Shown here: piece by piece, positions 13,072-58,978 of the stretch
How the letters are laid out: each line of letters opens with the position of its first letter
Numbering within the stretch: position 1 is the stretch's first letter
Assembly (NCBI GenBank): GCA_040754625.1
Contig: JBFMCF010000096.1
Coordinates: 1,651-65,650, forward strand
DNA from: a bacterium
GTDB taxonomy: Bacteria > JACRDZ01 > JAQUKH01
DNA: 64,000 nt
Direction of reading: 5' to 3'
The notes under the pieces: model-generated
What the model saw: only the letters and a program-made list of their open reading frames with translations
Database searches by the model: none
Told to the model about the DNA's origin: nothing
Program-made: the position numbers and the translations under genes

Positions 13072-13145
13072 TTATTGAAATCTCCTTTTCTATTTTTAAA
13101 TTATTTATTATAACATTATTATTATTTTATACAAAATATTTTATG

Positions 13146-22823: not shown

Positions 22824-22890
22824 TTTTGTATTCTTTTTACTCCTCTGCGGTATAATCCACTTTCATTAACATTTCTATCATCTCCAGCTC

Positions 22891-23688: not shown

Positions 23689-23690
23689 CT

Positions 23691-35886: not shown

Positions 35887-35947
35887 AATTATACACCTCA
35901 AATAATATTAAACGAACCTATTGCCACACAAAAAGATATGAGCGAAT

Positions 35948-39790: not shown

Positions 39791-39858
39791 TATAACCTCT
39801 ATTTTCCTCATTTAGAAATAAAAACCATCCACAATGCTTATTTATCCATTTATTTATT

Positions 39859-42003: not shown

Positions 42004-42960
42004 TTATTCCATAATTTTTGTAATTGTTTCTATTATACTTTCTTCGTCAAGATTATTTATTTTATGCAGATATTCCCTGTCACCCACTTCAAACACATAA
42101 CCATCTCCAAAACCAAACGCATTCAATTCAGATGAAAATTTATTTCTTCTCAAAATATTCGATATTAATGAATCTAAACCGCCTTTATCAATAAATCCCT
42201 CTTCCATGGTAAAAATATATTTATATTTACTCATCACTTCGGAAAGCCTCTTTTCATCAAATGTCTTTAATAGAAAAAAATCAATATGGCCGGCATTAAT
42301 ATTTTTTTCCTTTAATATATTGACAACTTTGAGCGCTTTATGAGTCATATACCCTGTTGATATAATACAAACATCTTTCCCATTCTTTAATTCGTAAAAA
42401 CCTTTTTCTATAACTATCTCTTTTTCATTATTATATATGGAAGGTTGAGCCTTGCCGTCCAGCCGTATATATTTAGGTTTATTGGTATTAAGCGAAAATT
42501 CAACAAATTTTTCCGCCATAATGTGGTCACTCGGTGAAAACACAACAATATTAGGCAGAACCCTGATTATCGGTATATCTTCAAAACAATGATGAGTAGG
42601 GCCTGTCACATCATAACTTAATCCGGCGCCGACACTAATCATATTTACATTTAAATTTCTTATCTGAGACATCAGGGATAAATTTATTCTTATTTGCTCA
42701 TAACATCTCATGGACAAAAATGGCGCAATCGCATAGGCATAAACTATATAACCCTCTAATGCCAAACCGGTTGAAACATTTATAAGATTTTGTTCCGCGA
42801 TTCCCACATTAATGAATCTCTCTTTAAAATCTTTCCTTAATTTGTCCAAAACAGGAGAACCAAAATCAGCCGACACAAAAAATATTTTATCATTGTTGAA
42901 CATTCTTTCATATATTTTTTCTATCAAAGCATCACGCATTGTTTTTGGGTTATTATTCAT
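42004..42960 (-). CDS. Transketolase, C-terminal subunit (split transketolase)
   Basis: 318 aa with pyrimidine-binding and C-terminal transketolase domains (FINVGIAEQNLI...FEVGDREY). Confidence 0.8.
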   Translation of the reverse strand: MNNNPKTMRDALIEKIYERMFNNDKIFFVSADFGSPVLDKLRKDFKERFINVGIAEQNLINVSTGLALEGYIVYAYAIAPFLSMRCYEQIRINLSLMSQIRNLNVNMISVGAGLSYDVTGPTHHCFEDIPIIRVLPNIVVFSPSDHIMAEKFVEFSLNTNKPKYIRLDGKAQPSIYNNEKEIVIEKGFYELKNGKDVCIISTGYMTHKALKVVNILKEKNINAGHIDFFLLKTFDEKRLSEVMSKYKYIFTMEEGFIDKGGLDSLISNILRRNKFSSELNAFGFGDGYVFEVGDREYLHKINNLDEESIIETITKIME

Positions 42961-43772
42961 TATTTCTCCCGAAGCAATTTATCGATTTCCTCCGCTTTTA
43001 ACGCCTTTATATGGCATAAGGAATCTGTTTCCAATCTCGGAACACTCTTGCCTTTTATTGTATTTGCGATCAACACTTTAGGTTTATTGATTTCATCTTT
43101 TTTAAAAGATAGTAAACTATCATATAATTCTTTAATATTATGTCCGTCCACAATCTTTGTTTTCCAATTAAAAATCTCGAATTTTTTGTCCAATGGTTCT
43201 AAATTCAAAATTTTCGCACAATAATCAAGCATACATATTTTGTTGTTATCAATAATTAATATCAGATTATCTAGATTATGATGGGCTGCAAACATAACGG
43301 CCTCCCAAACAGAACCTTCATATAATTCGCCATCTCCGGATAAAACAACAACTTTTTCTTTCTTACCTTTCTTTTTTAGCGCCAAAGACATACCGCATGC
43401 CACCCCTAAACCATATCCTAAACTGCCATTAGCCGTTTCATAACCGGGTATTGAACAGTCCGGAATATCCCCTAAAATTGATCCTGGTTTACCTACCATT
43501 CTCAGATATTTTGAATCAAAATATCCGAGATCTGCAAGAATCGGATAAAACGAAACTGACCCATGCGCTTTACTGATAATAAATCTATCCCTGTTTTCAG
43601 AGTGAATGTCTTTCGGATCAAATTCTAATATTTCTCCGTAATACAATACTGTAAGAATTTCCACACAAGACAAGGCCGACGCCAATCTAATTCCGGGCGC
43701 TATTTTGTGAATCTTTAAAGTTTCTTTCCAAACCCAATCCGACTTTTCTCTTAAAAAATCAAAATTTACCAT
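42960..43772 (-). CDS. Transketolase, N-terminal ThDP-binding subunit (split transketolase)
   Basis: 270 aa. ThDP motif region GSLGYGLGVACGMSLA...VVLSGDGELYEGSVWEA (GDG...E). Confidence 0.8.
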   Translation of the reverse strand: MVNFDFLREKSDWVWKETLKIHKIAPGIRLASALSCVEILTVLYYGEILEFDPKDIHSENRDRFIISKAHGSVSFYPILADLGYFDSKYLRMVGKPGSILGDIPDCSIPGYETANGSLGYGLGVACGMSLALKKKGKKEKVVVLSGDGELYEGSVWEAVMFAAHHNLDNLILIIDNNKICMLDYCAKILNLEPLDKKFEIFNWKTKIVDGHNIKELYDSLLSFKKDEINKPKVLIANTIKGKSVPRLETDSLCHIKALKAEEIDKLLREK

Positions 43773-43789
43773 ATTTTTATATTAATTTA

Positions 43790-44764
43790 TTATTTATAAT
43801 ATTTCTTATACCATTCCATAGTCTTTTTAATTCCGGTCTTAACATCAGTTTTTATTTTAAAACCTAACAGCTTCGCTGCTTTTTCTGCATTAATAAGACG
43901 TATTGGAATCATTGACGGTTTGCTGGAATCATAGGTTACAACGGCATTTTTAAACCCTTCGACCTCAAGGCACATATTGATAATCTCTTTTACGCTGTAG
44001 CCTTTTCCATAGGCGATATTTACAGGCTCATAAGTTTCAATCTTTTCTGCCGATAAAATAAGCGCCTCTATAAAATCATCAATATATATTAAATCCCTGA
44101 CATCATCACCATTCCCCCATACGTTAATCGGATTCTGTCTTTCAATAATTTTTCTTATTGTCGCGGCCATCATATGGGAAGTGGCAAAATCAAAATCATC
44201 ATACGGCCCATAAATGTTTGACGGCCGCACCACTACCGTCGGCATAGGATTTTTTAATTTTGTTGAATACATTCTGCATAAAATCTCAGTATATCTTTTC
44301 ATCCACGCGACACCAAAATAGATATCATACGGATCCCCGTTAAACATTTCTTCTTCTTTCACATATCTATCATCAGACGGTGGATAAGCGGCATTGCTGC
44401 TCAGCCATATAAACTTTTTTACTTTCGCAAAATACGCAGCCTCAAGCATTTGAGAATTCATTATTATATTCGGAGTCACATGCACAAGCGGGGTTGATGC
44501 TATTACTGCTGCGCCGGAAGTATTCGCCGCACATAAAAAAACATAATCCATACCATCAACAACTTTTTTGCAATCATCCATATTCAGTAAATTACATTTA
44601 ACATACTCAATTCTTTTATCAATAATAACAGCATCTTTTCTGTACAACGTAGCCCTGACATTAGCACCTAAGGTTAATAATCTATTAATTAAATTTGCAC
44701 CAACAAAACCAGTTCCGCCTGCAACCAGTACTTCAGCATTTCTAAACATTTTCACTCCCTTCAT
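43790..44764 (-). CDS. NAD(P)-dependent epimerase/reductase (GDP-sugar reductase-like SDR)
   Basis: VLVAGGTGFVGANLINRLL Rossmann motif; 324 aa extended SDR. Confidence 0.6.
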   Translation of the reverse strand: MKGVKMFRNAEVLVAGGTGFVGANLINRLLTLGANVRATLYRKDAVIIDKRIEYVKCNLLNMDDCKKVVDGMDYVFLCAANTSGAAVIASTPLVHVTPNIIMNSQMLEAAYFAKVKKFIWLSSNAAYPPSDDRYVKEEEMFNGDPYDIYFGVAWMKRYTEILCRMYSTKLKNPMPTVVVRPSNIYGPYDDFDFATSHMMAATIRKIIERQNPINVWGNGDDVRDLIYIDDFIEALILSAEKIETYEPVNIAYGKGYSVKEIINMCLEVEGFKNAVVTYDSSKPSMIPIRLINAEKAAKLLGFKIKTDVKTGIKKTMEWYKKYYK

Positions 44765-45257
44765 CTCGCCTTGAAACCATAGGATTTTTTACTGGCCACC
44801 ATATATTTATTTTTGGATCATTCCATAATATAGTAAACTGCCCCGCCCTGTTGTAATTTGTAGACTGTTTATAATGAAACATGGCCTGTTCACTTAAAAC
44901 AAGATGCCCATTCCCGAATTTCGGAGGGACCAAAACCTGTAATCTGTTAGTTTCCGATAGAACAAAAGATTCCCATTTACCAAACTGAGGAGAACTCTTG
45001 TCCCAATTAATAACTACAAGATAAAATTTTCCATATAGACAAGAAACTAATTTATATGTATCATTATCTCCATGAATACCTCTAAGAACATGTTTTGAGG
45101 ATACTGAAATATCATCTTGCATAAAATTGACATTAATACCTGCTTTCCGATAAAGACCATCGTTATAAATTTCTATATAACTTCCCCTGAAATCTTCAAA
45201 AATAGTAGGCGGCTTTATAAGTAAAACCCCTTCAAGTTTTGTTTTGCTGACTTCCAT
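44742..45257 (-). CDS. dTDP-4-dehydrorhamnose 3,5-epimerase-like cupin (RmlC superfamily NDP-sugar epimerase)
   Basis: LEGVLLIKPPTIFEDFRGSYIE...RGIHGD......KLV.C..G: RmlC fold motifs; 171 aa. Confidence 0.7.
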   Translation of the reverse strand: MEVSKTKLEGVLLIKPPTIFEDFRGSYIEIYNDGLYRKAGINVNFMQDDISVSSKHVLRGIHGDNDTYKLVSCLYGKFYLVVINWDKSSPQFGKWESFVLSETNRLQVLVPPKFGNGHLVLSEQAMFHYKQSTNYNRAGQFTILWNDPKINIWWPVKNPMVSRRDEGSENV

Positions 45258-45259
45258 AA

Positions 45260-46246
45260 TTACTCCTTAAAATAATTTTTTTTATTCAAATATTCATTCT
45301 GATTTTTTAAAAACCAGTTCCATGTTTCTTTTAATCCATCCAGTAAAGAGGTTGTTGGGTTATAATCAATTAGCTCTGCTGCCAGAGAAATATCCATAAC
45401 CCGTTTGGGGAATCCCGAAGATTTTGTTGTATCAAACTTATAATTAAAGTCAATAAAGCTATTTAATGTTTCTACCAGTTCTTTAATAGTAACGCCTTTG
45501 CCACTGCCTAAATTAACAAAACCGGATTTTGTCCCGTGATAGAGCGCGAGAATAACACCTTCAGCCACATCTCTGCTATACGCAAAATCTCTTACCGCGG
45601 TTCCATCACCCCAAATTGTTACCGGATTTTCTTTATTATAAATTCTATACATCAAACTCGGTATTACCATTGCATTATCCGGATCAAAATTATCGCCCGG
45701 GCCGTATACGTTACAAGGCCTGACAATGGCAAAATTTTCCAGGCCGTATTGAATTTTATAAGCCTGGACCTGAAGTTCGGCCATTCTTTTCGCCCATCCT
45801 GGAAACATATCCATCGGCGGGCCTTCAAGATTTTCGTTTTCTTTAAATATTTCCGCGCTGGAGTAAGCGCCTATAGAACTTGTATAAACAACCTTTTGAA
45901 CTTTATTGATTCTGCTTGCCTCCAAAACATTAGTATTAAACATCAAAAGAGGAACAAAAAAACTTGCGGGTTTTGATTTTGTAACTTCGACAGAACCTTT
46001 TATTCCAGCCATATGGAAAACAAAATCCATATCTTTTGTCACTTCTTTGCAGAATTCAAAATTCGTAAGGTCTCCGAAAATATGTTCTGCTTTATCATTT
46101 ACATTAACCTTATCCAAGGAAACTATCTTTACGTACACCCCAGTATCGCACAAAAGATTAACAACCTGTCTTCCAATAAGGCCTGTTCCCCCTGTTATCA
46201 AAACACTTTTCCTTATAAAACTTTTCAATATATTGTCCCTTATCAT
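45260..46246 (-). CDS. NAD-dependent epimerase/dehydratase family protein
   Basis: VLITGGTGLIGRQVV Rossmann motif; YTSS...Y...K catalytic-like residues; 328 aa. Confidence 0.6.
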   Translation of the reverse strand: MIRDNILKSFIRKSVLITGGTGLIGRQVVNLLCDTGVYVKIVSLDKVNVNDKAEHIFGDLTNFEFCKEVTKDMDFVFHMAGIKGSVEVTKSKPASFFVPLLMFNTNVLEASRINKVQKVVYTSSIGAYSSAEIFKENENLEGPPMDMFPGWAKRMAELQVQAYKIQYGLENFAIVRPCNVYGPGDNFDPDNAMVIPSLMYRIYNKENPVTIWGDGTAVRDFAYSRDVAEGVILALYHGTKSGFVNLGSGKGVTIKELVETLNSFIDFNYKFDTTKSSGFPKRVMDISLAAELIDYNPTTSLLDGLKETWNWFLKNQNEYLNKKNYFKE

Positions 46247-46310: not shown

Positions 46311-46886
46311 TTATATTTTTATGATTTTTCTGTTTATCAGATATTTAGCAATAATCGCAATCTGAAAGCCGATATAAATTTCACCTTCTGCAATCTTTTC
46401 AAGAATATCATTAAATGTAAAGCATTCAACGCTTACAATTTCATTGTCATGAACTCCCCTTGAGTCAAACTCCTGCCGTGTAAGGTGGATTTGGAAAATA
46501 TATGGAAGAACAGGACTACGCAACATGTGTATAAGCGGGGGCAGCATCTGGAATCTATTAAGATCAGAGATAAGAATTCCAGTTTCTTCAGCCAGTTCTC
46601 TGCCCGCTGTTTCAACAGGCAATTCGTTATCTTTCAAACCTCCCGCAGGGACCTCAAGAGTTCTATCGGCAACAACAGGCCTGTCAACCCTCACCATAAC
46701 TATCGAATTATTGTCCACGATTGGCAAAATAAGTACCTGCGGCATGTTGTATTCTACAGTAAAGTAACCTTTTCTATTGCGCACCGCAAACCATGGATTT
46801 TCATGTACTGTTTCCACCGGTATCAGTGAAAAACACTGAGCTTCCACCAGTCTTGGATCATTTAATAAATATTTTCTTCCGTCCAT
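46311..46886 (-). CDS. Nudix hydrolase (NDP-sugar / ADP-ribose pyrophosphatase type)
   Basis: Nudix box GGLKDNELPVETAGRELAEETGI. Confidence 0.7.
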   Translation of the reverse strand: MDGRKYLLNDPRLVEAQCFSLIPVETVHENPWFAVRNRKGYFTVEYNMPQVLILPIVDNNSIVMVRVDRPVVADRTLEVPAGGLKDNELPVETAGRELAEETGILISDLNRFQMLPPLIHMLRSPVLPYIFQIHLTRQEFDSRGVHDNEIVSVECFTFNDILEKIAEGEIYIGFQIAIIAKYLINRKIIKI

Positions 46887-46892
46887 CTTTTT

Positions 46893-47906
46893 CTATCTTG
46901 TCAGAAAAACTCTGCCTAATTTAAGCCTTTCCCTCCAATAATCAAGCAAATCCTGCATAGTTTTTTCGAAAGGTATTCTTGGTTTCCAGCCTGTGTGCCT
47001 TTCAAACTTGCTTGTATCCGGCACCTGAAGATCGGCATCTAAAGGACGAAACCTTGAAGCCTCAGTCTCAACTCTAATTATATTTTTATGAGTCGAAATC
47101 GAAATTAAATACTTAAGCATTTCTCCAACTGTACATGAAAAAGTCCCGCCAATATTATAGTACTCACCGGGTAACGGATTAACAGTGACCAGCATATAAT
47201 ATGCCCGAACAGCATCTCTGACATCCGACCATGTACGTAAAGAATCTAAATTACCGGTCTTTACTACGGGTGCAATCAACCCTTTCTCAATCATCGCAAT
47301 TTGTTTTGCAAAAGTGGATTCGGCAAATATATCTCCTCTGCGTGGCCCGGTGTGCGTAAACATCCTGGTTACAACAATTCTCTGGCCATAAGCTTCTGCA
47401 TGAAATCTGGCTATAAGATCAGTTCCTGTTTTGGATATCGCATAGGGAGATGCCGGATGAAATGAACATTCTTCATTAATCGGCAATTTATCTTTTTTTA
47501 CGCGTCCAAAAACTTCAGAAGATGAGCATACATGGATAACGGGGTCGATTCCTTTGCATTTTCTTAATGCTTCCAGCAATCTTTCAGCGCCTAGAATGTT
47601 TGTATCAAGTGTTTGTATGGGAGATGTAAAACTTGTACTCGGGTAACTCTGGGCGGCTAAATGAAAAACAAAATCCGGCCTGCTTTCTTCAACAACATTT
47701 TGCAGTGATATATAATCACATAAATCGCCATACATAAAACATAAACGGTCTTTTTTATTAGCTCTATTGAGAAGGTGTTCCACATTATCCATAGAACTGC
47801 GCCATCGGCACATCCCATAAATATCCCAATCTGTATTTTCAAGTAAAAAATCCGCCAAATGGGAACCAACCATACCGGTAATACCTGTAATCAACGCTTT
47901 TTTCAT
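46893..47906 (-). CDS. NDP-sugar 4,6-dehydratase/reductase of the Gmd/Rmd extended-SDR family (DmhA-like)
   Basis: [21 protein letters not shown]...FHLAAQS; 337 aa. Confidence 0.55.
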   Translation of the reverse strand: MKKALITGITGMVGSHLADFLLENTDWDIYGMCRWRSSMDNVEHLLNRANKKDRLCFMYGDLCDYISLQNVVEESRPDFVFHLAAQSYPSTSFTSPIQTLDTNILGAERLLEALRKCKGIDPVIHVCSSSEVFGRVKKDKLPINEECSFHPASPYAISKTGTDLIARFHAEAYGQRIVVTRMFTHTGPRRGDIFAESTFAKQIAMIEKGLIAPVVKTGNLDSLRTWSDVRDAVRAYYMLVTVNPLPGEYYNIGGTFSCTVGEMLKYLISISTHKNIIRVETEASRFRPLDADLQVPDTSKFERHTGWKPRIPFEKTMQDLLDYWRERLKLGRVFLTR

Positions 47907-48658
47907 TGTTCATTACTCCCAAATTTTTCAGCCTTAGTAAACCTTTTTACCTTTTTAAAAAAATTTTCTGCTTCCTTATACGAATCCGGTGTGCCTATAT
48001 CGATGAATTCTGCATCCTGCGGAAATGCAAACAATCCGTTACCAATCATTTTTGGGAAGAAATCTTTTTCAAATGAAATATTTTTCTTTTCCTGCATTGA
48101 TGCTATTAATTCACGGTTTATACAATATATTCCGCTATTGATCCACCCACTTCCTTTATTTGCTTTTTTCTCATCAAATGAAGTAATCATGTAACTTGAA
48201 TCAAAATTAACACAGCCGTACCTGCTCACATCCGGCACCTGAACTAACAAAAGCGTACATGATGCTTTTATTGCAGTATGCCATTCTAATAAAGTTTGCG
48301 GATTAATGTTGCAGTACGAATCCCCGTTAAAAATCATAATAGCGTCAGATTTTACCATACCCGCCGCGTTTCTCACTGCGCCTGCCGTACCTAAAGGCTC
48401 ATTTTCTTCTGAATAACGCAGGTAAAGTGTCTTGTATCTATCACCTAAAAGGTTTTTGACTTGCCCACTCATAAATCCCGTACATAAAATCACATCTTCA
48501 CCGCCGGCATTTGAAATCTGATCCAGAATAAATGTGATAAACGGGTTTCCCATGATATCGGCAAGAGCCTTTTGACGGTCAGATACTATTGGCCGCAGCC
48601 TTTTACCGAAGCCTCCACAGAGAATTAATGTGCTAATTTCAGAAAAAATATTTTTCAA
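47903..48658 (-). CDS. Sugar-1-phosphate nucleotidyltransferase (HddC/WcbM-like)
   Basis: ILCGGFGKRLRPIVSDRQKAL matches the G.G.R signature of NTP-transferases; 251 aa. Confidence 0.65.
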   Translation of the reverse strand: MKNIFSEISTLILCGGFGKRLRPIVSDRQKALADIMGNPFITFILDQISNAGGEDVILCTGFMSGQVKNLLGDRYKTLYLRYSEENEPLGTAGAVRNAAGMVKSDAIMIFNGDSYCNINPQTLLEWHTAIKASCTLLLVQVPDVSRYGCVNFDSSYMITSFDEKKANKGSGWINSGIYCINRELIASMQEKKNISFEKDFFPKMIGNGLFAFPQDAEFIDIGTPDSYKEAENFFKKVKRFTKAEKFGSNEQ

Positions 48659-48691: not shown

Positions 48692-49873
48692 TTAAACATC
48701 AAGCCATGCAGTATCCGAACAATCACGTATTTCTTTCGCATACGCATCCCACTCTGCCCTCCGTATCACATATTGTTCCAATTCTTCAGCCCCCAGCCCC
48801 CAATCATTGCCATTATAAACTATCTGGCGTTTCCCGTCTTTCATTTCATCTATTGCTTCCCAATATTCTTTATAACATCCTGAGCTGATTTCAGGTTTTT
48901 TATCCTTATTCTTTTCTTTTAATGTTTTTGGAGTAAGCTTACTCTTTAACTCCCCAAGCTTTAAAGCCCCGATGAAAAACATTAAACAGCTGGCAAGCTT
49001 ATCCGAAAAACAATAGAAAAGTATTTTATCGCACAATCCGGGAATCGTACTTCTCCACCGGGAATCGTGGTCAATATGATAAATACAGCATTCATCAGGA
49101 AGCATTTCTTCTTTAATCCCCTTTAAATAAGCCATATTGCAAAGCAAAATTTCCACCCCCAGACCCAAATTATCCCTTTCAGGAAAACCCCTCAAAGAAT
49201 GCCATGATTCCCTCGACATTAATAATAAATCTGCTCCATTAAGATGCAAATTGGGGAAATCCCGATTACCGGCATTGATATCAAGATTCCTACTTCTTAA
49301 GTGTTGTTTTTTTTTCCTCACTACTGGAATGCTAATGTTGCGAGTGTGAATCCAGATAACATTTTTCCTGCAGAATTCCAATAAATCAGCCGACGATACT
49401 TCCAATATATTTCTGTTTACATCCTGCCTGTCCGTCCTGTATATCTTATCAGCCTCAAGAATTTCTTTGGCAACAAACTCTATTAATTCATCGGAAAATA
49501 AAATATCAATGGATGTCATCAGAACAAACTTTCCCCGTGCCCTTTTAAGTCCCGCGTTTTGTGCCACACTGAAATTGTAAGGTGTTTTATCCGAATCCTT
49601 GAAGCGTGTGTGAATTGACGATGGAACAACCAAATACCTGATTGTGCAATATTTTGTCTCTTCAGGCCAGCATAATACATCTTTTAAAAGAGGTTTATGA
49701 GAAGGAGGATTATAATCCGTTAATATTACTTCCGATTTAAGTTTATATTTTTCAAGCTGGCCTATGACGGAACTAAGTGTTGTCTGTGTCCGTTTAAACA
49801 TATTGCCACCGTGATCATCATTTCTTGAGCTGGTAACAATGCTTAAATATGGAGACTCGTGAACATCATTCAT
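48692..49873 (-). CDS. GT2-like (GT-A fold) glycosyltransferase
   Basis: LSIVTSSRNDDHGGN...NFSVAQNAGLKRARGKFVLMTSIDILFSDE follows the GT2 pattern (IPTYN..., NxG..A.G......D.D). Confidence 0.4.
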   Translation of the reverse strand: MNDVHESPYLSIVTSSRNDDHGGNMFKRTQTTLSSVIGQLEKYKLKSEVILTDYNPPSHKPLLKDVLCWPEETKYCTIRYLVVPSSIHTRFKDSDKTPYNFSVAQNAGLKRARGKFVLMTSIDILFSDELIEFVAKEILEADKIYRTDRQDVNRNILEVSSADLLEFCRKNVIWIHTRNISIPVVRKKKQHLRSRNLDINAGNRDFPNLHLNGADLLLMSRESWHSLRGFPERDNLGLGVEILLCNMAYLKGIKEEMLPDECCIYHIDHDSRWRSTIPGLCDKILFYCFSDKLASCLMFFIGALKLGELKSKLTPKTLKEKNKDKKPEISSGCYKEYWEAIDEMKDGKRQIVYNGNDWGLGAEELEQYVIRRAEWDAYAKEIRDCSDTAWLDV

Positions 49874-50075
49874 ATCTATTACACATACTCCTTTATATCG
49901 CCATTCCTGCCCCTCCCTCGAGTGCCAGCAGAATTTTTACGCTCTAACAATTTGCCGAATCCCCTTCAAAACAGTTTTAACATTGTCAGGTACGGCGCTA
50001 CCTGCCTCATCAAATTATTCAAGACCAGATAATTTGTAAATCCTGGATTCGTATTTATGCTTTCCATTAACTCAT

Positions 50076-50648
50076 TTATCCTTTTATCGCTTCAACGTTA
50101 AGGGCAACAAATTTACCTTTAAACCATTCACTGTCAGGCAAAATTTTATTTTTTTTATCTCTGTAGGGCATGTAATTTAAACTCCAGTCACGCACTTGCG
50201 CGTGTTCTGTCTTATTACGGTCATACCGCCGCACATTTACAAACCCAACAGACAATAAATCTTTCTTAAGTGTTTTAAAATCCCAGCACCAATAATGATA
50301 ATTACCGGGATTATCCTGCCCTCCATATAATGCGCAGTACATTGTTTCCAAATCCTTTGTTTTCATATAGTATTCACATAGAGACTCAAAATCAGGCACA
50401 CTAAGCCTCAATATTCCGCCCTTTTTTAATAAATCATACCATCTTTTCAACGCCGGCATATATTCCCACCTGCCCAAATGTTCAAGCACATTACTGCCAT
50501 AAATTAAATCAACTGAGTTTTCTTCAAATTTTCTTAAATGCCTGACATTATCCACAGCATCAACATTGGGCAAATAATTTGAATCAATATTGATAAAACC
50601 ATCGATGCGAACATTGCCACAACCCAAATGCAATTTCAATTTATCCAT
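50076..50648 (-). CDS. Class I SAM-dependent methyltransferase
   Basis: LHLGCGNVRIDGFINID...VDLIYGSNVLEHL...KKGGILRLSVPD. Confidence 0.55.
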   Translation of the reverse strand: MDKLKLHLGCGNVRIDGFINIDSNYLPNVDAVDNVRHLRKFEENSVDLIYGSNVLEHLGRWEYMPALKRWYDLLKKGGILRLSVPDFESLCEYYMKTKDLETMYCALYGGQDNPGNYHYWCWDFKTLKKDLLSVGFVNVRRYDRNKTEHAQVRDWSLNYMPYRDKKNKILPDSEWFKGKFVALNVEAIKG

Positions 50649-50705
50649 TGTTTTCCCCTGGCTTTCTCTGTTCTAAGCAGGCAACATAGCCTAAAACAGG
50701 TTTTT

Positions 50706-51710
50706 TTATATGAAATTTACTTGATATTTCTTACTGTGTGTGCCGTCAAGAATGATATTTCCTATAATGGTATTAAGCCATTCTTTAGAGCAAAATTTGC
50801 ATTTTTTTGGATTTATGGAAGCTACTAAATCTTTATGTTTTTGAGAACCCCACAAATCATATAATTCCCGCCAATTGTTTCTAGTATAATCGTCCGTAAG
50901 AATATAGCCGGTTCTTACATCGCAACATAAATAAAATTTGTGATTCGCCCCGAAAGTTGCATAAAGTGGAGTCCCCCGGCACACTTCAAATTCATATTGA
51001 ATTGCAGAGTTCTTAGGCAAGGCATCTTTCAAAATATATTTGCATCCCAATGTCTTTGCCAATTGAGGAAGCATTTCGGCATCAGCGTAATTATCTTTTT
51101 GTCTGCATTGAGTTGTCTTTTTCTTGTCTCTGATTCCCATAGTTGGCGAAAGCTCTTTTCTCCCCAGATGAATTTCCTCACACCATCTGATGAATTTGAG
51201 GGAAATTTCCAGGTCCGGAACACTATCACGGATACGTTTGACGTTATTGATAATTCGATGGAAGTTTTTCTCCGAAGATCCTTTCAATTGGCTCCAGGTC
51301 CTTGCAGTGGCTGCATCTAAACTTATACCCAACCAGCTAAGTAAATGCAGATTTTTAACTTTATCAAGCAAAACCCCATTAGTAATCAATCCCATATGGA
51401 TACCGTTTTCATATCCGCTCTGAAAAAGATAATGTATGTCCGGATTCAACGTTGGCTCGCTATCTCCTGCTATCCTCCAGGATTTTATGCCCCATTTTTT
51501 ACAGAACGGTCCCATTTTTTTTATAGTTTCTATAGACATAAATGTTGATTCTTTCGTTTCCTGGCTTGCTCGCTGAGCGCACCATTCGCAATTCAAGTTA
51601 CATGCACCATTTACAGGATCCACATCCGCCATTATGGGTGGCAAAAATTCTCCGTCCAAAATACCTTTAACTCTATCATAGTATCGTAACAATTTTATTT
51701 TCGAATCCAT
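50706..51710 (-). CDS. Radical SAM enzyme with C-terminal Cys-rich (SPASM/twitch-like) region
   Basis: GACNLNCEWC (CxxxCxxC) near the N-terminus. Additional Cys clusters are present (YLCCD, KKCKFC). 334 aa. Confidence 0.65.
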   Translation of the reverse strand: MDSKIKLLRYYDRVKGILDGEFLPPIMADVDPVNGACNLNCEWCAQRASQETKESTFMSIETIKKMGPFCKKWGIKSWRIAGDSEPTLNPDIHYLFQSGYENGIHMGLITNGVLLDKVKNLHLLSWLGISLDAATARTWSQLKGSSEKNFHRIINNVKRIRDSVPDLEISLKFIRWCEEIHLGRKELSPTMGIRDKKKTTQCRQKDNYADAEMLPQLAKTLGCKYILKDALPKNSAIQYEFEVCRGTPLYATFGANHKFYLCCDVRTGYILTDDYTRNNWRELYDLWGSQKHKDLVASINPKKCKFCSKEWLNTIIGNIILDGTHSKKYQVNFI

Positions 51711-51751
51711 TTTCTAACTTTCCTCATAACTCACGGCCACATTTTTGGTGT

Positions 51752-52504
51752 TCAACGCGCGCCAGATACAGGAATAATCGAACCTGATACATAAGAAGCC
51801 TCATCGGATAACAACCAGGCTATTGTCCTCGCAACTTCTACCGGCTTACCCATACGGCCCGTCGGCAATGAATGTTTTAGCATTTCTCGCCTTTCTTTAG
51901 CAATACCTTTATGTACATCCGTGTCAATTACACCCGGGCTCACAGCGTTTACTCTGATGTTAAAAGGAGCTAATTCTTTCGCGAATCCTTTCGTGACAAT
52001 ATTTATCGCTGCCTTTGAAGCGGCGTAATGTGTAAGTTTGTTTCCACCGAATATAGCTGCTTCAGAAGAAACATTTACAATACCGCCTCTGCCAATTTTT
52101 TTCATGCGTTTTACTGCCTCTCTAATACAGATAAAAACACCAAATACGTTTAATGAAAAAACTGACGTAAGTGTATCCAAGGTTATTTCTTCACAAACTG
52201 AAAAACCTCCGATATCTCCTGCATTATTTACAAGTGCTGTAACAACCCCATAATTCCTATCTATATACTTAAATAGATTAAGAATATCTTTTTCCTTCCT
52301 AATGTCAGCTTGTATTTGAACTGCTCTGCCACCAGTTTTCAAAATTTCATCTACAACATTCTGGGCTAATTCTATATCTTTGAAATAGTTCACGCATACA
52401 AAATATCCCTTTTCCCCTAACAATTGTGCAGTCGCAGCACCAATACCTTTACTCGCACCTGTCACAAGAGCTATTTCATTGTTCATAGCATGGCCTTTAA
52501 GCAA
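51752..52504 (-). CDS. Short-chain dehydrogenase/reductase (FabG-like classical SDR)
   Basis: ALVTGASKGIGAATA...NNAG...S....Y..SKAA: classical SDR motifs. Confidence 0.75.
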   Translation of the reverse strand: MLKGHAMNNEIALVTGASKGIGAATAQLLGEKGYFVCVNYFKDIELAQNVVDEILKTGGRAVQIQADIRKEKDILNLFKYIDRNYGVVTALVNNAGDIGGFSVCEEITLDTLTSVFSLNVFGVFICIREAVKRMKKIGRGGIVNVSSEAAIFGGNKLTHYAASKAAINIVTKGFAKELAPFNIRVNAVSPGVIDTDVHKGIAKERREMLKHSLPTGRMGKPVEVARTIAWLLSDEASYVSGSIIPVSGAR

Positions 52505-52521
52505 TTCTAATGATAGAAAGC

Positions 52522-53631
52522 TTATTTATCAATAATTTTAGAAACAATTTTATACCACTTTTGATATTCAACAAAAAATTGCTTTATCATTTCTTTTTCA
52601 ACAGCACCACGTATTTTCATTTTTCCCAAATCTTGTTGGCAATTTTTAATTAATTCGCCAAGTGCTTCAAAATAAGTATTTTTTGTCAACTCAGCGTTCC
52701 GAAGCAATAAAACAAAGTCATCAGCCGCACGATTATTTATTAATTCTATGTCCAAATCATCCCATAAATCATGCATATTTCTTATTTGCCTTACTAAGGG
52801 TTGGCCAAAAGTTATAACATGACCAAAATGTCCGGCAAGTTTGTTAATTAAATATGCTGTCCATATATCTCCGTTCCTCAAAGTTGATAGTGGCCTATAA
52901 TATAAAGGTATTAATTCACGACATAAGGATGTGTTTTGATAATTAAACGGAGACCATGTTCCCGGGTAAAGACCAAACTGTTGATCAAAATCAGATTTCA
53001 TACCAGTGGCACGTATAGGCCAAAATAATCGTGAAATAGCATCTATATCGGGATCTTCGAGCACTAATCCCTGATTTGCAACCACTTTGACTTTTTTTGA
53101 ACTGTATGTTTTTTTACTTGCCTCAGGATTTCTTTGTTTCCATGGAAAACCTCTAGGATAAAAAGGAATATTATGTTCCTCTTCCAACGCACTATGGACA
53201 TTAAACCATCCCGAACTATTCTTAATCAACTTCAGATTGGCTTCTGTGCCGGTCACAGAATGAAATCCCACGAAATCATGTTCAGTTGTATAATTATCGT
53301 CATCAACTGCAATCAGCCTGTCACATCCTCTCATATAACTAAGCATACCGCCTAACATAATTCGATCGGGTGTATTGTATGGAAAAAGTTCCAGCAGGTC
53401 TTTATGTTTGAATAAAGCTTTTTTCTGACCTTCAATGCTTAAATATTCAATATCAAATTTGAATTTATCAGCTATTTTTTTGCAATATTCTTCAGTTTCA
53501 GCTGGTGTTTTAACATCGCCAATAACAAGAATTGAGACATCTAATCTATTATAATTTATTAAATTTTGACAAATTCCTTTTATAAATTCTGGAACATTTA
53601 TAGTAGTAATAGTTATCGCTGTCTTGCCCAT
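52522..53631 (-). CDS. GT75 / reversibly-glycosylated-polypeptide-like protein (UDP-L-arabinopyranose mutase family homolog)
   Basis: Blocks are collinear with the plant RGP proteins as I recall them: ITITTINVPEF vs LDIVIPTIRNLDF; LIAVDDDNY vs IFTIDDDCF; NQGLVLEDPDIDAISRL vs SHGLWLNIPDYDAPTQL; NGDIWTAYLINKLAGHFG vs YDDMWAGWCVKVICDHLG. A strong RBS (AAGGAG) precedes the start. Confidence 0.5.
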   Translation of the reverse strand: MGKTAITITTINVPEFIKGICQNLINYNRLDVSILVIGDVKTPAETEEYCKKIADKFKFDIEYLSIEGQKKALFKHKDLLELFPYNTPDRIMLGGMLSYMRGCDRLIAVDDDNYTTEHDFVGFHSVTGTEANLKLIKNSSGWFNVHSALEEEHNIPFYPRGFPWKQRNPEASKKTYSSKKVKVVANQGLVLEDPDIDAISRLFWPIRATGMKSDFDQQFGLYPGTWSPFNYQNTSLCRELIPLYYRPLSTLRNGDIWTAYLINKLAGHFGHVITFGQPLVRQIRNMHDLWDDLDIELINNRAADDFVLLLRNAELTKNTYFEALGELIKNCQQDLGKMKIRGAVEKEMIKQFFVEYQKWYKIVSKIIDK

Positions 53632-53919
53632 CTAAAAAATCTCCTTTTCAGTTTATTAATTATAAATTTATTTTACAATAACCAACTATGCAAATATTTT
53701 AATATTCTCCCCTCCTCCCATAATACATCTTCATAATTAACTTTCAACTGATTCGTTATAGCCAGTGCAATATAACAATTCTTTCATTCCTTGTCAACAG
53801 GAATTTTAAATGAAAGTATCCTCATTTTTAAAATAATGATTAGAATGGATAATATAATTTTTTTAATAAATCAGGAACCTTGTGAATATTTTATCGTTGA
53901 ATAATGATTAGCTTTTAAG

Positions 53920-55437
53920 TCAAGTTGGCAGTATACGCAGTTTCTGGATAACTCCCTTAATTTCACACCTGAAATTCATTGAAACCAAGTAAATAAGACA
54001 ACTATATAAAAAACAAAATACCGCCACCAGAGCGAAAAATCGAAACCAGTTTTCCGGGTAACACCATGAGAATCCCAAAGTTAAAGAAACCATAACGGCC
54101 AAAGCCAAAAAACCTTCATACATGATATTCTTACGATCTTGAACAGACAATTTAAGCAACCTGGAAAAAGTTCGGGAATAATACCAAGCTGAAACTGCAA
54201 GTATTGCGACTGATGGGGCAAGTACTGTGCCAAGCAAACCAAAATATTTAGTTCCAAAAATCACTAAAGGGATAAATACCAGTGACTGCACCAGACCTGC
54301 TAAACTGTTTCCTTTAATATTGCCAAGAGCCATACAAATGTTCCCAAAACAGTTTGCAGTAAAAGTAAAAATAAGTGACACACAAATTATCAGATTGATG
54401 GTTTTACCGGCAAACAGATACGGGCCAACCCAAAGCCTTACAAAATCATCGTTTAAGGCAATAAGGCCTCCAACAGTTAAACAAAGTATCCAAAGCAGCA
54501 TGTGTATTAAACGAATCAGGACTTTTCGCGCTTTGTCAATTTCACCCGAACCAGTCAAGTGAGAAATAGCAGGCATAAAAGCTACACTCGGCTGGTTGAC
54601 AAATTCCTTGCTATAATCAGGAGCTTTACGGGTCAGGGATAAAATTGTAACCGTCTCCGGACCCAGAAACCGGGAAACAACAAACAAATCCACGTTATTA
54701 GCAAGTATACCAGATACGCGTCCCAGAAATGTATACGATAAAAGTTTTGTTAAAGCAGAAATGTTATTAAACGAAAATTTAAATCCTATTTTTTCATCCG
54801 TCAATCTCCAAATAAGGTATGTGCCTTGTCCCAATGTATAGAATACTCCACCAAAGATCGAAGCAATAGCTATGGCAAGCAAGCCAAAACCTTTATAAAG
54901 CAAAACGGCAGTCAGAACAGTCATAAGTGCAGTGACAATAAAATTTGTAAGTCCAAATCCCAGACTGCTTTGAAAACCCTGGTTAATGGCAGAAATTGAA
55001 AAAGAGAAAACTGTTAGAGAAGTTCCAATCACCGCGATAGAAAATGCCTGTACTATTAACGATTTATCTATACCGGGAGGCAGGCTAAGAAACAACGGTA
55101 AATAGGGAGCAATGATAAAACCAATAGCAATTATGGAAATCGAAATAACGCCAGCAATAAACAACCCGCCTCCTAAAAGTTCGCGTATGGTTTGATAATC
55201 CCGTTTTCCATAAGCGGAACCTATTCGTTGCTGTAATACAACAGTCAGCCCAGGATCAAAAAACGAAAACCATATAAGAACATTCCCGCTGGCAAGCCAT
55301 GCTCCATAAACATCAGTTGGAATAAATTTGAGATAAAGAGGAACCATGATAACGCCCGAAACAATTGCCAATAGAATCGATCCGTATCGGATAAAAAGGT
55401 TCCATGTGGTAGTTTTTTTTCGGCTTCTAATATACAT
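53920..55437 (-). CDS. Second Wzx/polysaccharide-biosynthesis (MOP-family) flippase
   Basis: 505 aa, about 14 TM. N-terminus LFIRYGSILLAIVSGVIMVPLYLKFIPTDVYGAWLASGNVL is typical of PST/Wzx exporters. Confidence 0.6.
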   Translation of the reverse strand: MYIRSRKKTTTWNLFIRYGSILLAIVSGVIMVPLYLKFIPTDVYGAWLASGNVLIWFSFFDPGLTVVLQQRIGSAYGKRDYQTIRELLGGGLFIAGVISISIIAIGFIIAPYLPLFLSLPPGIDKSLIVQAFSIAVIGTSLTVFSFSISAINQGFQSSLGFGLTNFIVTALMTVLTAVLLYKGFGLLAIAIASIFGGVFYTLGQGTYLIWRLTDEKIGFKFSFNNISALTKLLSYTFLGRVSGILANNVDLFVVSRFLGPETVTILSLTRKAPDYSKEFVNQPSVAFMPAISHLTGSGEIDKARKVLIRLIHMLLWILCLTVGGLIALNDDFVRLWVGPYLFAGKTINLIICVSLIFTFTANCFGNICMALGNIKGNSLAGLVQSLVFIPLVIFGTKYFGLLGTVLAPSVAILAVSAWYYSRTFSRLLKLSVQDRKNIMYEGFLALAVMVSLTLGFSWCYPENWFRFFALVAVFCFLYSCLIYLVSMNFRCEIKGVIQKLRILPT

Positions 55438-55582: not shown

Positions 55583-56152
55583 TTAAATTTTTTCAACATC
55601 TGATGCATCTATTTTTAAAGACGCACCATGCATAAGCACGTCCACTGAAATTATTAGTATATGCTGTCCGGACCTTTTTGAAAGAACACCTTCGACTCCT
55701 GAAAGAGGGCCTTTTTTTATCCTCACTCTCTGTCCTTCTTTCAAATAAGGATACGGATCGAGGGGTTCCCGGCTTTCAACAATTCTTCTTAGAAAAATAA
55801 TTTGTTCCTCCGGTACAGGCTCCGGTTCACCATGTTTTATCCCAAGAAATTTCACTACACCCGTTGTCTTCAAAACATTTAACACATTTTGGGGATTTTT
55901 AAGCATATTAACAAAAAGATATCCCGGGAAGAGCGGAAACTTTACCAGTTTTTTTCTATCCTTCCATCTGTTTAGTTTCTCCACAACAGGGAGAAATGTG
56001 TTTATCCCGGTTTCTGTTAACCTCTCCAATACCTTAAACTCATGCCGGGACCTCACATGAATAACATACCAAAAAGCTTTATTAGAAAATTCGAATGGAG
56101 ATTTTCCACTAACAGAATAAAACTTTGAAACCACTCTATCCGATGGATTCAT
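55583..56152 (-). CDS. NusG-family transcription antiterminator paralog (RfaH/UpxY/LoaP-like); start trimmed to the internal Met
   Basis: NGN domain (WYVIHVRSRHEFKV...FPGYLFV) plus a C-terminal KOW (EGQRVRIKKGPLSGVEGVL). The ORF-track N-terminal 39 aa overlap kpsF and look non-coding. Confidence 0.6.
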   Translation of the reverse strand: MNPSDRVVSKFYSVSGKSPFEFSNKAFWYVIHVRSRHEFKVLERLTETGINTFLPVVEKLNRWKDRKKLVKFPLFPGYLFVNMLKNPQNVLNVLKTTGVVKFLGIKHGEPEPVPEEQIIFLRRIVESREPLDPYPYLKEGQRVRIKKGPLSGVEGVLSKRSGQHILIISVDVLMHGASLKIDASDVEKI

Positions 56153-56243
56153 AAAATTGGATAACTTTATTAGTTTTAAAAAATTTTCCGAAGATATATT
56201 AATTTCTTCGATTATAAATGTTAAGAGGTCAAGAATTTTTAAA

Positions 56244-57209
56244 TTATAAACCAATGCTGATAAGATCATGCATTCTGACCATACCTACAACAATTTTTTT
56301 CTTATTTATAACAGGCAAAATTGTTATTGGTTTTTCCCTTTTTTCCATCATTTCCAAAGCTGTAAAAGCTTTCTCATTTTCATAAATAAAAATTGGTTTT
56401 TTATTCATAATATCGTTGATTTTCAATTTAAAAATATCTTTCCCTTTTTCTAGAATTCTTCTTATGTCATAATCCGTTACAAGCCCAATTAATCTACTTT
56501 TTTTATCAATTACTGAAACGGCCCCTGCTTTTTTTTCTGTAATAACCATTAACATTTTGTGAATATTGTCGTATTCGTTAACAACCGGATTCTCCATACC
56601 GCATAACATAATATCCGAAACTAAAAGGTTAAGCCTTTTCCCCAAACGTCCGCCTGGATGAAAAAATGCGAATTCTTCAACCTTGAAATTTCTAAGCTTC
56701 ATTAGTACGACCGCAAATGCGTCCCCAATAACAATTGACACGGTAACGCTTGATGTAGGGGCAAGATTAAAAGGGCATGCTTCTTTAATATCTCCGATAT
56801 TTATTACAATGTCCGAAGTTCTTGCTAAAGGCGAGTTTTTATTGGAAGTTATTGATATAATTTTTACTTTGATTTTTTTAAGGAAAGGAAGCAGGGTGTT
56901 TAATTCGGAACTTTCACCGCTTTTCCCGATAGCAATCACGACATCAGACGAATTTACAATTCCAAGGTCCCCGTGCATAGCTTCCGAGGGATGCATAAAA
57001 ATAGCAGGTGTACCTGTGCTCGCCATTGTGGAAGCAATCTTTTTCGCGGCTATACCTGATTTCCCAATACCTGTTATTATTACCTTTCCCCTGCAATTTA
57101 AAATGGCATTAATCGCTTTTTCAAATTCCCTGCTTACTTCTTTTTTAATATCGGATAGCGCGTTTATTTCAATATCTATGACTTTTTTTATTTCGGCTTG
57201 AATATTCAC
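56244..57209 (-). CDS. kdsD: Arabinose-5-phosphate isomerase (KpsF/KdsD; SIS + tandem CBS)
   Basis: SIS domain GKVIITGIGKSGIAAKKIASTMASTGTPA plus two C-terminal CBS domains; 321 aa. Confidence 0.75.
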   Translation of the reverse strand: MNIQAEIKKVIDIEINALSDIKKEVSREFEKAINAILNCRGKVIITGIGKSGIAAKKIASTMASTGTPAIFMHPSEAMHGDLGIVNSSDVVIAIGKSGESSELNTLLPFLKKIKVKIISITSNKNSPLARTSDIVINIGDIKEACPFNLAPTSSVTVSIVIGDAFAVVLMKLRNFKVEEFAFFHPGGRLGKRLNLLVSDIMLCGMENPVVNEYDNIHKMLMVITEKKAGAVSVIDKKSRLIGLVTDYDIRRILEKGKDIFKLKINDIMNKKPIFIYENEKAFTALEMMEKREKPITILPVINKKKIVVGMVRMHDLISIGL

Positions 57210-57213
57210 AATT

Positions 57214-58433: not shown

Positions 58434-58534
58434 AAAAATCCTTTTTATAATTTATAATAATCAATTATCTCAATTAAATAATTATCTATGTCAGTCAATC
58501 TATTTTTTAAAATATCTTTTTTAAAAGAATATTT

Positions 58535-58975: not shown

Positions 58976-58978
58976 ATT

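Follow-up and report, generated by a model that had tools for sequence, protein, structure and literature searches.

The only characterised bacterial GT75 enzymes come from two antibiotic pathways and use GDP-L-fucose and GDP-L-galactose: MtdL of the A201A pathway in Marinactinospora thermotolerans and Hyg20 of the hygromycin A pathway are GDP-L-galactose/GDP-L-fucose pyranose-furanose mutases (PMC9937993). In MtdL, the roles of the nucleophilic, autoglycosylated Arg159, of Asp195 and of the base Asp260 are known from mutagenesis, and ITC has shown that the exchanges T13P and S86D, which introduce the residues found in plant reversibly glycosylated polypeptides (RGPs), weaken or abolish GDP binding (PMC9937993). 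The plant RGPs, or UDP-L-arabinopyranose mutases (UAMs), belong to the same CAZy family and share its catalytic Arg/DxD logic (PMC9937993). A different family of mutases, FADH2-dependent and UGM-like, serves the capsules of Campylobacter jejuni, where HS41.17 acts on CDP-fucose and HS10.16/HS41.15 are predicted to act on GDP-6-deoxy-heptose (PMC10680097, PMC12369002). Among the radical SAM (rSAM) enzymes that work on nucleoside- or nucleotide-linked sugars are BlsE, a cytosylglucuronate decarboxylase, and DesII, the TDP-4-amino-4,6-dideoxyglucose deaminase.

The window, that is, the whole stretch of 64,000 nucleotides analysed here, encodes a cassette of four genes, all on the minus strand and in the order GT75-SDR-rSAM-MT. 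These code for a GT75-family mutase homolog of 369 aa (52522..53631), predicted to convert a GDP-6-deoxy-heptopyranose to the furanose, a classical FabG-like SDR oxidoreductase of 250 aa (51752..52504), an rSAM enzyme of 334 aa from an uncharacterised family (50706..51710) and a small class I SAM-dependent methyltransferase (MT) of 190 aa (50076..50648), with spacings of about 17-35, 41 and 57 bp, respectively. Cassette homologs with up to 89%, 85% and 85% identity are found in other metagenomes; since these homologs and the same gene order recur elsewhere, the ORFs are real genes and not chance. Upstream lies a 288-bp intergenic region (53632..53919, minus strand) with an AAGGAG ribosome-binding site (RBS) at 53641-53646, 9 nt ahead of the ATG of the 369-aa gene, and a promoter-like TTGACA-17-TATATT (53797->53769 on the minus strand, 11/12 positions plus TG), both of them consensus matches only; no Rfam family matched this region. 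It is bordered by the stop codon, at 53920, of a Wzx/MOP-type flippase gene (53920..55437, minus strand; Polysacc_synt_3 5e-10, MurJ 1e-5), and an UpxY/NusG-family antiterminator (55583..56269, minus strand; NF033644 UpxY 3.4e-37, 127.9 bits, cutoff 100) stands at the head of the region. The four ORFs, the gap and the strong RBS described in an earlier note on this DNA are thus all present. We favour, with moderate confidence, the reading that the cassette forms a GDP-6-deoxy-heptofuranose and then tailors it, inside a conserved GDP-6-deoxy-heptose pathway of a Wzx/Wzy-type surface-polysaccharide locus; as part of this explanation, and with the same confidence, the tight spacing, the one RBS and the one upstream promoter-like site would make the four genes a co-transcribed tailoring module.

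The 369-aa protein aligns with MtdL (7XPR/7YUA) with a phmmer E=2.6e-42 and 34% identity over 317 aa (residues 4-329). It has no Pfam or NCBIfam match, and PF03214 (RGP) is absent even at E<=10, an outcome that the earlier note, which had proposed a homolog of the plant RGPs, had itself named as speaking against its assignment. GT75 homology hence rests on MtdL instead: the family assignment survives and the direct match to the plant RGP model does not. Nor is the family rare in bacteria, contrary to what had been supposed: a threshold of E<=1e-3 gives 3179 representative clusters, and 536 are left at E<=1e-30. The DDD motif that had been pointed out is found at residues 110-112; D111 and D112 are invariant, D110 is conserved at a level of at least 90% (alignment A1), and all three Asp residues occur in ~95 of ~95 loci. 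R160, D195 and D255, the counterparts of MtdL Arg159, Asp195 and Asp260, are invariant as well, and Q232, R252, R284 and H287 are kept at the positions of the diphosphate/sugar ligands Gln229, Arg257, Arg289 and His292 of MtdL. Two positions differ. The Mn2+-coordinating His287 of MtdL is replaced by Gln282, a residue shared without exception by 40 clade members and by all 'Gln-type' loci, and the position of MtdL Asp87 is taken by Pro88, next to an Asp89 that varies across the wider family. Asp87 is essential in MtdL but is a Ser in active plant RGPs, and so is not universal in GT75 (PMC9937993). The His-to-Gln exchange and the loss of Asp87 co-vary throughout a large clade, and judged by its sequence the 369-aa protein is a member of this distinct GT75 'Gln-type' clade. 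The protein therefore resembles MtdL and Hyg20 in fold family, DDD motif, nucleophilic Arg, both catalytic Asp residues, the equivalents of Gln229 and Arg257, the loop-A Arg/His and the GDP-type equivalents of Thr13 and Ser86, and in both cases NDP-sugar epimerase/reductase genes adjoin. It differs from them in the two exchanges, in its setting in a polysaccharide locus rather than an antibiotic cluster, in its probable heptose rather than hexose substrate and in the coupled rSAM gene, which their loci do not contain.

The gene order recurs elsewhere, as part of a block of about ten genes in at least eight metagenomic loci: heptose dehydratase, GT75, (SDR), rSAM, MT, reductase, RmlC-like epimerase, reductase, HddA-like kinase and HddC-like guanylyltransferase. 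The combination noticed earlier therefore holds as an adjacency but not as a self-contained unit. Its conserved core is the GT75-rSAM pair, whose linkage was checked starting from either gene. In the window, the further block members follow downstream on the minus strand. The sugar-1-phosphate guanylyltransferase (47903..48658) is HddC/ManC-like (NCBIfam man1P_GTase 7e-49 and HddC 1.8e-43, both below cutoff, the latter with 149 bits against 300), and next to it lies the gene of a 337-aa 4,6-dehydratase of the GDP-heptose type (46893..47906). This protein matches the C. jejuni GDP-heptose 4,6-dehydratase 7US5 with E=6e-113 and 380 bits, compared with ~145 bits or less for true GMDs, so that an ortholog of the heptose-type enzyme appears to be present, with a predicted specificity. 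Two Fcl-like NDP-sugar reductases or epimerases, the first of which is a possible C4 reductase (45260..46246; GDP-L-fucose synthase model 4e-46, below cutoff; PDB GDP-fucose synthetases ~3e-31) and the second of which is encoded at 43790..44764, flank an RmlC-fold 3,5- or 3-epimerase (44742..45257; PF00908 1e-46) similar to the C. jejuni GDP-heptose epimerases 8DB5, 8DCO and 7M14 (~1e-35). For the GHMP kinase (40990..41979) the best model is HddA (NCBIfam 1e-40, 140 bits against a cutoff of 600), and such a kinase follows the reductase in seven loci. Neither GmhA nor GmhB turned up in the scanned ORFs; both could be encoded elsewhere in the genome.

Other genes of this stretch, also on the minus strand, recur as well. 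A NUDIX hydrolase gene (46311..46886; PF00293 3.7e-10) has counterparts after GT75 in five loci, and genes like the split transketolase (42004..43772; N half 42960-43772, C half 42004-42960) are found beside the GT75-rSAM pair in three. A 393-aa protein with faint GT-A/GT2 similarity (48692..49873; Glyco_transf_49 0.0046 and GT2 0.02, both below cutoff) has homologs near GT75 in four loci and might, speculatively, be a candidate glycosyltransferase for the product of the cassette. Distant Gln-type GT75 proteins in gut-associated MAGs adjoin a dehydratase 66-69% identical to that of the window, together with GHMP and HddC genes. Taken as gene context, the conserved neighbours of the GDP-heptose type point to GDP-heptose rather than UDP-arabinose as the substrate.

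A hexose substrate would bring the enzyme closer to its characterised relatives. The GT75 protein would then be a Hyg20/MtdL-like mutase acting on a GDP-6-deoxy-hexose such as GDP-L-fucose, supplied by the canonical ManC and GMD of the window or by the 337-aa dehydratase using GDP-mannose promiscuously, and the SDR would oxidise the C5-OH. Hyg26 oxidises the C5-OH in hygromycin A biosynthesis, and a classical SDR lies ~5.5 kb from GT75 in hygromycin-type Streptomyces loci. GDP-L-fucose and GDP-L-galactose are moreover used by the only bacterial GT75 enzymes characterised so far (PMC9937993), and the window does encode a true GMD (472 bits to 1DB3), ManC and Fcl-like reductases. However, this GMD is only 30% identical to the heptose-type dehydratase and is found at a distance of 35 kb. 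The genes that accompany GT75 from locus to locus are instead those of the heptose-type dehydratase, the HddA-like kinase and the HddC-like transferase. The Gln-type clade also lacks Asp87, which binds the fucose O4 in MtdL, and the 32-35% identity of the SDR to the Streptomyces SDRs is superfamily-generic. We regard a hexose mutase as unlikely.

It is also possible, although in our view unlikely, that the Gln-type GT75 protein is not a mutase but an arginine self-glycosylating protein or a GT-A (STELLO-like) enzyme transferring a modified sugar, with the rSAM enzyme, the SDR and the MT acting on a pyranose. The changes at the Mn site and at Asp87, invariant in the clade, would agree with this, as would the inactivity of AtRGP5, which lacks the same His and Arg257 (PMC9937993). 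Furthermore, a STELLO glycosyltransferase model is matched by 16 of the 40 clade members and PF03214 by only seven. On the other hand, the other residues proven essential in MtdL by mutagenesis (here R160, D195, Q232, R252, D255 and D110) are kept, including the Arg252 that distinguishes the protein from AtRGP5. Gln is able to ligate a divalent metal via its carbonyl oxygen. A natural fusion of GT75 to an SDR of the NDP-sugar reductase type (P0227) likewise suits an enzyme that converts NDP-sugars.

UDP-arabinofuranose formation by an RGP-like enzyme acting on UDP-L-arabinopyranose, as the earlier note had suggested, is very unlikely, because the base-selectivity residues are of the GDP type (T9 and T87, equivalent to Thr13 and Ser86 of MtdL, where RGPs carry Pro and Asp) and the conserved neighbours are GDP-heptose enzymes, including a guanylyltransferase. 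The shared CAZy family and the matches of some clade members to Pfam RGP would favour such an activity, but the 369-aa protein itself, unlike the plant enzymes, has no PF03214 match, its closest characterised relative is GDP-specific and its context is unrelated to UDP-arabinose.

The rSAM enzyme contains the CX3CX2C motif (C37-X3-C41-X2-C44), which is invariant, and matches PF04055 with 53.2 bits (cutoff 29.5). Its C-terminal part has five invariant Cys residues in the pattern C244...C262-C263...C304-X2-C307, and the predicted model has a beta-hairpin and helices. The five Cys residues suggest an auxiliary cluster, bound by one twitch-like set. The closest folds are BlsE and DesII, with an identity of only 14-19%; DesII has a single cluster, in contrast to the auxiliary one suggested in addition by the five Cys residues of this family. 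To the twitch enzymes BtrN, MoaA and SkfB, sequence similarity is limited to the rSAM core, and the cluster proposed here is putative. The SPASM label given previously does not apply: the 7-Cys motif CX9-15GX4C...CX2CX5CX3C...C is missing, there is no Cys beyond C307, and PF13186 matches neither this enzyme nor any close family member. Maturation of a peptide (RiPP) or protein, with no relation to sugar chemistry, is a barely credible role, as the 41-bp and 57-bp gaps contain no ORF, no small ORF is conserved near the rSAM gene across loci, the sole small ORF between genes (33 aa, 49966-50067) occupies a gap missing from homologous loci, where the MT abuts the next gene, and the rSAM gene is always found among sugar-nucleotide genes beside GT75.

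The SDR is a classical one, in line with its first description as FabG-like, by its profiles (PF13561 6e-54 as adh_short_C2, PF00106 7e-50; under every NCBIfam equivalog cutoff) and by the motifs TGxxxGxG, NNAG and YxxxK, present as VTGASKGIG, VNNAG and YAASK. The listed start codon is TTG, and the ATG 18 nt downstream at 52486 is likelier. Orthologs that are 47-77% identical adjoin GT75 in ten loci. The assignment of the MT also holds: it matches Methyltransf_11 with 27.8 bits (cutoff 21.2), its LHLGCG motif is invariant, and the best 50 Foldseek matches of its AF2 model (pLDDT 94.7) are all methyltransferases; SAM binding is predicted. A second natural fusion, GT75-MT (P0219), carries an MT domain that shares 36% identity with it (E=1e-40). 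Both fusion proteins match PF03214.

The homologies, conserved residues, gene linkage and natural fusions given above are observations. For the GDP-6-deoxy-heptofuranose pathway that we favour, the substrate, the order of the steps and the reactions of the rSAM enzyme, the SDR and the MT that we infer would be as follows. The HddA-like kinase and the HddC-like guanylyltransferase would produce GDP-heptose, which the heptose-type 4,6-dehydratase, the RmlC-like epimerase and the Fcl-like reductases would convert to GDP-6-deoxy-heptopyranose. Next, the GT75 enzyme would form the furanose in a flavin-independent, divalent-metal-dependent reaction by the mechanism proposed for MtdL. Arg160 would attack C1, with Asp255 serving as the base, and displace GDP; the ring would open and O4 would reclose on C1; and GDP, held in the meantime by the DDD-bound metal, Arg252, Arg284 and His287, would be added back. 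The twitch-type rSAM enzyme, the classical SDR and the small MT would then modify the GDP-furanose, most plausibly at exocyclic carbons C5-C7, a side chain that only the furanose form leaves free, and this tailoring would also draw an unfavourable pyranose/furanose equilibrium forward. The rSAM enzyme might, for instance, dehydrate, oxidise or epimerise the exocyclic carbinol and in this way render the ring contraction irreversible.

The net reaction, GDP-6-deoxy-heptopyranose to furanose downstream of a homologous dehydratase, epimerase and reductase, would be that predicted for the C. jejuni FADH2-dependent mutases HS10.16/HS41.15, which belong to a different family and use a flavin in place of a divalent metal and Arg. 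If this reading of the cassette is true, GT75 would be a non-homologous replacement of the C. jejuni enzyme. More tentatively, Gln-type GT75 proteins might be widespread, unrecognised flavin-independent GDP-(deoxy-)heptose mutases of environmental and gut bacteria, with Gln in place of the canonical His metal ligand and, as a conserved partner, a new twitch rSAM enzyme that performs unprecedented radical chemistry on a GDP-furanose. The product would then be a modified heptofuranose as yet undescribed in any glycan.

The four minus-strand genes at 50076-53631, proposed in the earlier note to be a sugar-modification cassette, encode a 369-aa protein (52522-53631), a 250-aa SDR (51752-52504), a 334-aa radical SAM (rSAM) enzyme (50706-51710) and a 190-aa methyltransferase (50076-50648), and their strand and coordinates match those proposed exactly. 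The SDR was listed with a TTG start, and an ATG at 52486 is likelier. The genes are spaced about 17-35, 41 and 57 bp apart, and the 288-bp gap that separates them from the upstream flippase (53632-53919) and the strong RBS (AAGGAG, 9 nt upstream of the GT75 ATG) are both confirmed. Within this gap, TTGACA-17-TATATT at 53797->53769 agrees with the promoter consensus at 11/12 positions, as a consensus match only, and Rfam gives zero matches to the gap or the rest of the 64-kb window. Judged by conservation, the cassette ORFs are genuine genes, because other metagenomes hold close homologs (82-89% identity). The SDR is of the classical, FabG-like kind, has every canonical motif and falls under all NCBIfam equivalog cutoffs. 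The methyltransferase clears the Methyltransf_11 gathering score, belongs to a family with an invariant LHLGCG motif and is modelled with a pLDDT of 94.7; the structural matches of the model are class I methyltransferases only. A 33-aa minus-strand ORF (49966-50067) lies in the roughly 200-bp gap between the methyltransferase gene and that of a 393-aa protein, and is probably not a gene, because homologous loci lack this gap.

The 369-aa protein finds nothing in Pfam or NCBIfam at E<=0.01, and its sole match at E<=10 is a sub-threshold one to STELLO. The earlier note had named the lack of a significant match to PF03214 as formal grounds for giving up its GT75/RGP assignment, and there is no such match. 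Seven of 40 family members do match PF03214. A reading of 'no homology' is overturned by a sequence search of solved structures, in which the protein matches MtdL of the A201A pathway (7XPR/7YUA), the structural prototype of CAZy family GT75, with E=2.6e-42 and 34% identity over 317 residues. In the alignment, functional residues of MtdL are kept as DDD 110-112, Arg160, Asp195, Gln232, Arg252, Asp255, Arg284 and His287, of which Arg160 aligns with the nucleophilic, autoglycosylated arginine and Asp255 with the proposed base. Nor is GT75 rare in bacteria, contrary to the earlier note: a profile search recovers 3179 representative clusters with a cutoff of E<=1e-3 and 536 when this is tightened to E<=1e-30.

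Two positions set the protein apart from MtdL. The Mn-coordinating His287 of MtdL is replaced by Gln282, as placed by the alignment, and the essential Asp87 by Pro88. An alignment of 40 sequences, the most distant at 42% identity, shows Gln282 to be invariant, and across about 95 loci GT75 proteins divide cleanly into a His-type, which includes MtdL (L059) and Hyg20 of hygromycin A (L066) and without exception keeps an Asp where MtdL has Asp87, and a Gln-type, in which Asp is never seen there. The remaining catalytic residues are invariant in both types.

GT75 membership and furanose formation are supported, whereas the UDP-arabinose substrate first suggested is not supported, since the base-selectivity residues are GDP-type and the neighbours fit a GDP-heptose pathway. 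Both selectivity positions are threonines (Thr9, Thr87), whereas plant RGPs have Pro and Asp there. The neighbouring 337-aa enzyme (46893-47906, minus strand) is a heptose-type 4,6-dehydratase that matches true GDP-mannose dehydratases at only about 1e-42. Genes on the minus strand at 11881-14585, about 35 kb from the cassette, encode a canonical ManC of the bifunctional type (479 aa) and a true GMD (396 aa; 472 bits to E. coli GMD). The latter shares just 30% identity with the 337-aa enzyme, and the region therefore holds two separate GDP-sugar 4,6-dehydratase systems. Further neighbours are an HddC/ManC-like guanylyltransferase, a GHMP kinase with HddA as its best model, two Fcl-like reductases and an RmlC-fold epimerase that is no less close to the Campylobacter jejuni GDP-heptose 3- and 3,5-epimerases than to any RmlC. 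Because the HddA, HddC and Fcl matches all lie under their curated equivalog cutoffs and neither GmhA nor GmhB was found among the ORFs scanned, we infer the heptose assignment from the strong dehydratase match. A minus-strand split transketolase (270 aa and 318 aa; 42004-43772) within the sugar-nucleotide block may supply heptose precursors or add a C2 unit, as transketolase or E1-like genes recur beside GT75-rSAM pairs (L001, L096, L161). A minus-strand NUDIX hydrolase (46311-46886) fits the same pathway and may hydrolyse or proofread a GDP-sugar. The 393-aa protein (48692-49873, minus strand) resembles GT-A proteins only faintly and has no relative of known structure, a search of solved structures with it and with the methyltransferase giving nothing useful; it is a candidate furanosyltransferase because its homologs adjoin GT75 in L030 and lie near it in L082, L084 and L096.

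The recurrence of these genes was followed by tblastn of the window proteins against 80 GTDB loci, seeded with the GT75 alignment, and 80 metagenome loci, seeded with the rSAM alignment. GT75-SDR-rSAM-MT (MT, methyltransferase) recurs in identical order in L001, L003, L081 and L083, in the same order interrupted by contig ends in L004 and L091, and as GT75-SDR followed by a contig end in L002. L082 and L084 have GT75-rSAM-MT without an SDR between, and L087 has the GT75, rSAM and MT genes rearranged. A larger block, running from the heptose dehydratase through GT75-(SDR)-rSAM-MT to reductase-RmlC-reductase-GHMP-HddC, is kept in L001, L081-L085, L087 and L091. The labels of the carrier MAGs include Acidobacteriota (L003), Planctomycetota (L002, L004), Omnitrophota (L005, partial) and a groundwater 'Acetobacterium', and this spread over several phyla suggests that the cassette is a mobile module. 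The last of these, L001 (JACQZP010000004.1), is the closest genome-derived locus (GT75 87% identical); its label, 'MAG: Acetobacterium woodii', looks doubtful, as Omnitrophota and other candidate phyla are the source of related loci.

In the reciprocal test, GT75 is adjacent in 17 of 35 rSAM-seeded loci, and where an rSAM of at least about 50% identity lacks it, the cause is a short contig (L086, L089, L090), a truncated edge match (L112) or, in L085, a locus that starts within the conserved block. More distant loci have the order rSAM-GT75-NUDIX (L013/L094/L161, L095, L096, L098), with NUDIX directly after GT75 and the SDR and MT no longer adjacent; in L161, however, the vicinity includes a classical SDR, methyltransferases and a transketolase-like pair. 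rSAM homologs at 45-49% identity have different neighbours. A 464-aa neighbour of a Synechococcus homolog was considered as a cryptic GT75 and rejected (hhalign probability 0.1%), so these rSAMs have other partners. The Rhizobiaceae MAGs L009 and L011 carry dehydratase-reductase-SDR-reductase-GT75-GHMP with the rSAM absent, with the same matches in L012. In animal-associated MAGs, mostly from gut and rumen, Gln-type GT75s adjoin HddC-like genes and a homolog of the 337-aa dehydratase (66-69% identity), and both such loci mapped in detail also have the GHMP kinase. From this pattern, the stable core is the Gln-type GT75 with GDP-heptose-type enzymes, and the rSAM is its clade-specific, tightly linked partner.

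The SPASM label once given to the rSAM is ruled out by its Cys pattern and the absence of PF13186, the spatial clustering of its five cysteines being read from the alignment only. A role in RiPP maturation was likewise rejected: when every ORF of 20 aa or longer in the vicinity of the rSAM was listed and the gaps compared across loci, no precursor peptide was conserved. A sugar-modifying role is supported. The profile search also yielded two natural fusions. P0219 joins a Gln-type GT75 to a C-terminal MT domain (36% identical over 188 residues to the MT of the cassette, E=1e-40), and in P0227 the partner fused to a Gln-type GT75 is an extended NDP-sugar SDR (Epimerase/GDP_Man_Dehyd). These fusions argue that GT75, the cassette MT family and NDP-sugar reductases would work consecutively on one nucleotide sugar.

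We hypothesize that 4,6-dehydration, epimerisation and reduction turn a GDP-heptose into a GDP-6-deoxy-heptopyranose, whose ring GT75 would contract via an Arg160-glycosyl intermediate, as proposed for MtdL, and that the furanose would then be tailored by the rSAM, SDR and MT. Hyg26, the SDR that oxidises C5'' of fucofuranose in hygromycin A, offers an analogy. As the C5 hydroxyl is free in the furanose form only and the pyranose is favoured at equilibrium (PMC12369002), a change at C5 or close to it would not only diversify the sugar but also draw the mutase reaction forward. In the papers examined (PMC10680097, PMC12369002), the furanose mutases characterised or predicted for C. jejuni capsules, including those proposed for the HS:10 and HS:41 GDP-6-deoxy-heptofuranoses, are all FADH2-dependent and UGM-like, so that a GT75 enzyme in this role would be a non-homologous replacement. 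In the literature examined, characterised furanose mutases of bacterial surface polysaccharides are flavoenzymes throughout; for the metal-dependent GT75 route, bacterial tests are confined to two antibiotic pathways of actinomycetes.

Throughout its 64 kb, the window has the appearance of a single polysaccharide-biosynthesis region read in one direction. Its substantial ORFs are all on the minus strand and GC skew is negative throughout; among the 38 ORFs in 1-44000 that reach 150 aa, the single plus-strand one overlaps another ORF. The region head (55583-60589) encodes an UpxY-family antiterminator, the Kdo precursor enzymes KpsF/KdsD and KdsC, a Wzz-like protein, a Wza-like exporter and a Pol-beta-type nucleotidyltransferase (58535-58975). 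The stretch 20548-24305 carries FnlB/FnlC-like genes with Polysacc_synt_C and UDP-GlcNAc 2-epimerase domains, as well as a HisH/HisF-like amidotransferase pair; these genes suggest that the region also makes a sugar of the UDP-L-FucNAc type and an amidino or amide modification. Other genes encode AsnB-like glutamine amidotransferases (628 aa, 34015-35901; 531 aa, 38216-39811), a TagF-like glycerophosphotransferase (36649-37806) and, among GT4 glycosyltransferases, a 487-aa B12-binding rSAM (26748-28211); two similar B12-rSAM genes flank the rSAM-GT75-NUDIX trio of L161. The 317-aa (39992-40945) and 489-aa (31293-32762) ORFs have no match in Pfam or NCBIfam.

The GT75 family and its chemistry are already known from MtdL and Hyg20; new are the Gln-for-His clade without Asp87, its setting among polysaccharide and heptose genes and its link with a novel rSAM family and a dedicated MT. 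In the literature searched, neither a GT75 heptose mutase nor an rSAM partner of such an enzyme came up, and the same holds for rSAMs that act on GDP-furanoses. To our knowledge, furanose sugars are absent from mammals, which makes furanose-making enzymes antimicrobial and vaccine targets. The loci compared here point to GT75 mutases as a common feature of polysaccharide loci, both in uncultivated phyla and in gut MAGs, where they appear to act on GDP-heptose-type sugars, with Gln consistently in place of His at the metal site and a genetic tie to an uncharacterised rSAM family. The locus offers a testable enzyme set toward GDP-heptofuranoses and their derivatives, the Gln/His split a natural experiment on GT75 metal ligation, and the rSAM a candidate for new radical sugar-nucleotide chemistry.
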